Source of the DNA: Escherichia coli | Lineage (GTDB): Bacteria; Pseudomonadota; Gammaproteobacteria; Enterobacterales; Enterobacteriaceae | Assembly: GCF_050920415.1 (NCBI RefSeq) | Contig: NZ_CP169309.1 | DNA: 64,000 bases | Strand: one strand, 5' to 3' | The notes under the pieces: generated by a model | The model's database searches: none | Told to the model about the DNA's origin: nothing | Seen by the model: only the letters and a program-made list of their open reading frames with translations | Part shown: positions 26,344 through 27,138 of the stretch, one piece after another | Position numbering within the stretch: position 1 is the stretch's first letter | Layout of the letters: every line of letters begins with the position of its first letter | Made by a program: the position numbers and the translations under genes

Positions 26344-27138
26344 TTGAAAAAACTGAAACTGCATGGCTTTAATAATCTGACCAAAAGTCTGAGTTTTTGT
26401 ATTTACGATATCTGCTATGCCAAAACAGCCGAAGAGCGCGACGGTTATATCGCTTATATCGATGAACTCTATAATGCCAATCGTCTGACCGAAATCCTGT
26501 CAGAAACCTGTTCCATTATCGGGGCCAATATTCTTAACATTGCCCGCCAGGATTACGAACCACAGGGTGCCAGCGTCACTATTCTGGTGAGTGAAGAACC
26601 GGTCGACCCGAAACTTATCGACAAAACAGAACACCCCGGCCCACTGCCAGAAACGGTCGTTGCCCATCTCGATAAAAGTCATATTTGCGTACATACCTAC
26701 CCGGAAAGCCATCCTGAAGGTGGTTTATGTACCTTCCGCGCCGATATTGAAGTCTCGACCTGCGGCGTGATTTCTCCGCTGAAGGCGCTGAATTACCTGA
26801 TCCACCAGCTTGAGTCCGATATCGTAACCATTGATTATCGCGTGCGCGGTTTTACCCGCGACATTAACGGTATGAAGCACTTTATCGACCATGAGATTAA
26901 TTCGATTCAGAACTTTATGTCCGAGGATATGAAGGCGCTGTATGACATGGTGGATGTGAACGTCTATCAGGAAAATATCTTCCATACAAAAATGTTGCTT
27001 AAAGAGTTCGACCTTAAGCACTACATGTTCCACACTAAACCGGAAGATTTAACCGACAGCGAGCGCCAGGAAATTACCGCTGCGCTGTGGAAAGAAATGC
27101 GCGAGATTTATTACGGGCGCAATATGCCAGCTGTTTAA
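26344..27138 (+). CDS. speD: S-adenosylmethionine decarboxylase proenzyme (pyruvoyl-dependent)
   Basis: ORF 264 aa (x)[15 protein letters not shown]...; TTG start at 26344 with upstream aaggag; processing site ...YPESHPEGG. Confidence 0.93.

Follow-up and report, generated by a model that had tools for sequence, protein, structure and literature searches.

Initiation by fMet-tRNA extends to GUG and UUG where a Shine-Dalgarno sequence brings the 30S subunit into place, and proteins initiated at these codons still start with methionine because it is fMet-tRNA that initiates there. Start usage in Escherichia coli is 83% AUG, 14% GUG and 3% UUG (bioRxiv 10.1101/063800), infC and pcnB are listed in the literature as the only confirmed AUU starts, and stronger Shine-Dalgarno sequences tend to compensate for suboptimal start codons (Belinky et al., PMC5622118). 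The four start assignments considered here, those of speD, panC, acnB and secM, are textbook-ordinary and already part of the curated K-12 and RefSeq annotations.

The window, that is, the whole 64,000-nucleotide stretch analysed, is an E. coli chromosome segment equivalent to K-12 minutes 2.3-3.5, in an orientation reversed relative to K-12. It spans gluQ/pcnB, panBC, speED, acnB, the pdh operon and secMA as far as the ftsW end of the dcw cluster. Starts were compared with the PGAP annotation of the closest record, NZ_CP169399.1 (strain MFDS1022581), which is 100% identical to the window over 23201-64000 and 99.97% identical over 1-21924, and which lacks a 1276-bp insert present at window 21925-23200. 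The second reference was the curated K-12 MG1655 record, with speD (b0120), panC (b0133), acnB (b0118) and secM (b0097). The mechanical ORF list takes the first start codon after an in-frame stop (longest-ORF rule). For cross-species comparison, a SpeD scan of a genome collection provided 80 loci from different Enterobacterales species, ranging from Escherichia to Photorhabdus/Xenorhabdus, with SpeD identities of 79-99%.

The insert at 21925-23200 is a copy of IS621 (IS110 family, ~1276 bp) in the gcd-cueO spacer, flanked by a 2-bp duplication and absent from this site in NZ_CP169399.1. Compared with another IS621 copy of that record, the insert shows 99.5% identity and is shorter by one base. 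The transposase ORF of the insert (23008-22361, minus strand) ends after 215 aa; with a full-length transposase of about 326 aa, this copy is either frameshifted or affected by a sequencing error. Among 5426 E. coli genomes, 2244 carry IS621, the median copy number being 5.

An earlier note on this DNA had placed the start of speD at TTG 26344 with AAGGAG upstream, that of panC at GTG 11700, that of acnB at GTG 30310 and that of secM at GTG 54106, leaving unstated that the last two genes lie on the minus strand. Each of these starts is borne out by the sequence, by PGAP and by K-12 MG1655, and cross-species conservation agrees. We put at about 95% the probability that speD, panC, acnB and secM use ordinary near-cognate start codons and that the longer acnB and secM ORFs are artefacts of the first-start-after-stop rule. 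In 4/4 genes the codon is in frame with the conserved protein and sits at its N-terminal edge, and conservation is lost upstream. A Shine-Dalgarno sequence lies within 4-12 nt of the codon in speD (AAGGAG, 11 nt), panC (AAGGAG, 7 nt) and acnB (GAGGAG, 7 nt), and secM has only a weak site; the compensation of a weak codon by a strong Shine-Dalgarno sequence fits three of the four genes. The PDB chains 1L5J (AcnB, 865 aa), 1IHO (PanC, 283 aa) and 9VVI_6 (SecM) begin at the assigned residues, although such constructs are designed from annotation and are therefore no independent proof of native N-termini. The claim that the ORF track misplaces these starts applies to acnB and secM but not to speD and panC, which the mechanical list already has right because an in-frame stop sits just upstream. 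Both extensions are exactly 51 codons long, as had been stated; the acnB extension does begin at an ATG (30463), but that of secM begins at TTG 54259, so that the ATG named for secM in the note is its one factual slip.

The speD start codon TTG (26344-26346, plus strand) is the first start after an in-frame stop, is used by PGAP and K-12, and opens a 264-aa coding sequence (26344-27138, plus strand; ORF list, PGAP and K-12) for the AdoMet decarboxylase proenzyme. Its Shine-Dalgarno sequence AAGGAG (26327-26332, plus strand) overlaps the speE stop TAA (26326-26328) within TAAGGAG, leaving a gap of 15 nt between stop and start and, in E. coli, a spacer of 11 nt between AAGGAG and TTG. The aligned start is TTG in 80/80 Enterobacterales species. 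An extended Shine-Dalgarno sequence of the AAGGGGGTGA type, containing the speE stop, usually precedes it in other species, the A-rich context aaaTTGaaa is also conserved across the 80 loci, and nearly all of the 80 species have an in-frame stop 1-6 codons before the TTG. For a neutral baseline, 17 four-fold-degenerate sites within speD codons 2-100 were compared over the 80 species, and every one of them varies; speE, taken for contrast, starts with ATG in 70 loci and with GTG in 4. A sequence search of the PDB found no E. coli-type SpeD structure. The invariance of the speD UUG across the whole order is a mildly new point; the rest is already known.

A short junction with a Shine-Dalgarno sequence overlapping the end of the upstream gene is present at panB-panC as well as at speE-speD. 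The panB stop TAA (11686-11688) lies inside TAAGGAG, and the panC Shine-Dalgarno sequence AAGGAG (11687-11692, plus strand) stands 7 nt before the start codon GTG (11700-11702, plus strand; sequence, PGAP, K-12 and PDB 1IHO), with an 11-nt gap between stop and start. The coding sequence comprises 283 aa (11700-12551, plus strand) according to the ORF list, PGAP, K-12 and PDB 1IHO, and for the PanC structures of Salmonella, Yersinia and Thermotoga the alignment likewise begins at residue 1. The best 120 PanC homologue matches are all from Escherichia, and it is in E. coli that in-frame stops upstream of panC were seen. Given the overlap of Shine-Dalgarno sequence and upstream stop and the gaps of 15 and 11 nt, the operon-internal speD and panC are probably translationally coupled to speE and panB, judging from the layout of these junctions. 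Two kinds of PanC record depart from the 283-aa form. One, of 330 aa (P0121), is E. coli PanC with an internal duplication that is probably an assembly artefact. Records of 288 aa (MRSHVV...) begin five codons upstream of the GTG, where a TTG would presumably arise when the panB stop is TGA; this start is implausible, since the position falls inside the Shine-Dalgarno sequence.

The same counts bear on whether the weak start codons of speD, acnB and secM are regulatory devices kept by selection, beyond mere tolerance. TTG in 80/80 speD loci, set against 0/17 invariant neutral sites nearby, would fit active maintenance of the UUG by selection across Enterobacterales. The acnB GTG (25/25) and the secM codon, which alternates between GTG and TTG and is never ATG, may have been maintained likewise, and a lasting non-ATG start is notable because the general trend favours ATG (PMC5622118). 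However, the 80 species are related by descent and hence represent fewer than 80 independent events, no experimental link was found, a literature search on speD start-codon function returned nothing relevant, and selection of this kind would add to the main explanation without replacing it. We regard selected, regulatory weak codons as a tentative proposal that is on balance doubtful. If it were true, the speD UUG could fix a low SpeD:SpeE ratio via coupled re-initiation, or could make AdoMet decarboxylase synthesis respond to IF3 or polyamine levels, and the acnB GUG might sharpen the competition between RyhB and the ribosome. The order-wide conservation of the speD UUG could justify a simple codon-swap experiment.

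Ordinary near-cognate initiation at acnB is placed at GTG 30308-30310 (minus strand) by the sequence, PGAP, K-12 and PDB 1L5J, opening an 865-aa coding sequence (27713-30310, minus strand; ORF list, PGAP, K-12 and PDB). The cross-species set covers this start in 25 loci, and GTG is found in all 25 species. The Shine-Dalgarno sequence GAGGAG (30318-30323, minus strand), 7 nt before the GTG, is invariant too, and lies in a block of 22 nt preceding the start codon that is nearly invariant across the 25 species and across genera. RyhB pairing and a 30S toeprint have been mapped to the acnB ribosome-binding site (PMC4150767), and acnB would thus rely on its own strong GAGGAG within a conserved initiation region that also serves RyhB pairing. 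Of 35 four-fold sites in acnB codons 2-100, three are invariant, at codons 2, 6 and 12; their confinement to codons 2-12 indicates that the initiation region (30275-30332, minus strand) is constrained at the nucleotide level, plausibly by RyhB pairing or by the 30S binding site. A literature search on the acnB N-terminal sequence and N-terminomics found nothing relevant.

The spurious 51-codon acnB extension (30311-30463, minus strand) is present in the ORF list. In-frame stops lie 6-28 codons upstream of the GTG in at least 12 of the 25 species, and in five species the frame upstream lacks any start codon. The numbering of the acnB mRNA construct in PMC4150767, combined with the 2598-nt ORF, implies a 5'UTR of 96 nt and a transcription start at ~30406. 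This position is 7 nt downstream of the -10 hexamer of a promoter-like site, TTAACA-17 nt-TATTCT (30413-30441, minus strand; -35 at 30441-30436, -10 at 30418-30413), the only one found by a promoter scan in the acnB-yacH spacer. A 96-nt 5'UTR would leave ATG 30463 off the transcript, 57 nt upstream of its start. The suggestion that the extension enters the acnB-yacH divergent promoter region therefore stands, ATG 30463 being upstream of both the sole promoter-like site and the inferred transcription start. A GTG 17 codons upstream of the acnB start, preceded by AGGAG, was considered and rejected, as a single nucleotide separates the two and the site is unconserved.

AcnB could in principle also be initiated in part at an in-frame ATG 7 or 9 codons upstream of the GTG (30331 or 30337), yielding a minor isoform that begins MTMRARRTV-. 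The 96-nt 5'UTR includes both of these ATGs, and they occur in most of the Enterobacteriaceae sampled, a conservation accounted for by the near-invariance of the entire 22-nt initiation region (the RyhB/30S site, PMC4150767). Neither ATG is preceded by a Shine-Dalgarno sequence, and they are missing in 8 of the 25 species, including Yersinia, Serratia, Pantoea and Rouxiella relatives, whereas the GTG and GAGGAG are invariant. We consider such an isoform very unlikely.

The secM start codon GTG (54104-54106, minus strand) is supported by the sequence, PGAP, K-12 and PDB 9VVI, and opens a 170-aa coding sequence (53594-54106, minus strand; ORF list, PGAP, K-12 and PDB). GUG initiation here would proceed with a weak Shine-Dalgarno sequence, only GGGAUGG being present upstream and GGUGG in other genera. 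Among six non-E. coli loci, the aligned start is GTG in Salmonella, Enterobacter, a Raoultella-type locus and Citrobacter, bringing the genera with GTG to five, and TTG in two metagenomic relatives; ATG occurs in none of the seven loci overall. All six non-E. coli loci carry in-frame stops 1-22 codons upstream. Database annotation is more variable: the correct codon is used in 56 of the best 120 SecM clusters, the others being extended by 2-86 residues or shortened, and 10 of the 120 are called from a GTG 25 codons upstream. Sarker, Rudd and Oliver reportedly revised the secM start site experimentally in 2000. The Ribo-RET paper describes secM as an ORF of 170 codons and flags its primary start, and the 170-codon ORF in the window starts at the same codon as in that paper and in PDB 9VVI.

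Upstream of secM, an intrinsic-terminator hairpin of lpxC with a 9-U tract (54258-54316, minus strand) is kept, as a hairpin, in six other genera. A consensus promoter/terminator scan of the secM leader gave no match, and the terminator is supported instead by folding (-24.2 kcal/mol, z-score -5.7). The spurious 51-codon secM extension (54107-54259, minus strand), which is present in the ORF list and interrupted by the cross-species stops, begins at TTG 54259, whose first two bases are the last two U's of the terminator U-tract. The extension contains no in-frame ATG, and its in-frame GTG 25 codons upstream of the start is the one used by some gene callers. With the acnB extension beginning upstream of a promoter and that of secM inside the lpxC terminator, both would be products of the ORF rule.

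That AcnB and/or SecM are made with 51-residue extensions, or SecM with a 25-residue extension from the in-frame GTG, is scarcely credible: the extension frames are open in E. coli and 10/120 SecM clusters do begin at that GTG, but in-frame stops interrupt the extensions in other genera, ATG 30463 lies upstream of the acnB promoter-like site and TTG 54259 within the lpxC U-tract, every candidate upstream start is without a Shine-Dalgarno sequence, differences between K-12 and the window in the secM extension alter the residue at 3 of 4 affected codons, and both the curated annotation and the PDB sequences have the shorter proteins.

Two further observations concern the secM leader. A block conserved in seven genera, GCTTTAATGrTAAGATTTGkGCGC (54140-54165, minus strand), lies ~40 nt upstream of the secM GTG. 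It contains an extended -10-like TGnTAAGAT, seen by eye in the alignment, and is a candidate secM promoter; if this promoter is real, the GTG 25 codons upstream is excluded as a start. In Salmonella secM (P0037, P0039, P0044 and locus L084), an in-frame ATG lies 9 codons upstream of the GTG, and NCBI clusters of Salmonella SecM differ in their starts, large ones beginning at the ATG (for example, 860 members, 174 aa) and others (165 aa) at the GTG. The GTG is favoured because a Shine-Dalgarno-like GGTGG sits between the two codons.

Across the window, the 55 complete annotated CDS start with ATG (50), GTG (3), TTG (1) and ATT (1). Non-ATG starts are not enriched, as 5/55 is at or below genome expectation; if anything, the near-cognate count is low (binomial P(<=4 at 17%) = 0.03). 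Of the 55 genes, 19 are made too long by the first-start-after-stop rule, among them yacC (57 codons), hpt (25) and yacL (16). Over-extension is thus a generic artefact of the longest-ORF rule and no property of non-AUG genes, and the lesson is that such a track over-extends about a third of the genes in the window. The sole unusual start codon in the window is the ATT of pcnB (1383-1385, plus strand), which is absent from the earlier note's list. It is annotated by PGAP, is the same codon in K-12, is preceded by GAGGTG and opens a CDS at 1383-2780 (plus strand); a rule confined to canonical starts would place the pcnB start at a TTG 7 codons upstream or a GTG 11 codons downstream.

Other annotated features of the window include hofC (46101-47303, plus strand), which the NZ_CP169399.1 annotation marks as a pseudogene carrying an internal stop; over these coordinates the window sequence translates without one. 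Rfam matches above the gathering threshold are PssrA at the ftsA-ftsZ junction (56498-56587, minus strand), tp2 antisense in the pdhR-aceE spacer (38811-38924, plus strand), STnc40 at the secA-mutT junction (50782-50851, minus strand) and the REP-derived naRNA4 downstream of yacG (50198-50275, minus strand).

Start assignment sets the boundaries of 5'UTRs and promoters. With correct starts, the RyhB/ribosome-binding region of acnB, the divergent acnB-yacH promoter and the lpxC terminator/secM leader are not mistaken for coding DNA. Such correction is routine annotation hygiene, and the K-12 record and PGAP are already right.

Compared with known systems, speD, panC, acnB and secM differ from the AUU-initiated infC and pcnB in using the common near-cognate codons GUG and UUG. 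The polyamine modulon of Igarashi and Kashiwagi is said to comprise mRNAs with UUG or GUG starts or with distant Shine-Dalgarno sequences, whose translation is stimulated by polyamines. E. coli speD resembles its members in having a UUG start and an 11-nt gap between AAGGAG and start, but polyamine stimulation of a polyamine-synthesis gene would amount to positive feedback, and a literature search found no support for membership of speD in the modulon. The likeness to K-12 MG1655 is close: gene order, protein lengths (264, 283, 865 and 170 aa) and start codons (TTG, GTG, GTG and GTG, for speD, panC, acnB and secM, respectively) are all identical. Within 30 nt upstream of the start, the two sequences have no mismatch in speD, panC and acnB, and one in secM, at -19. 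The window differs from K-12 by the additional IS621 copy elsewhere and otherwise by strain-level substitutions only, which amount to about 1-3% across the wider E. coli population.
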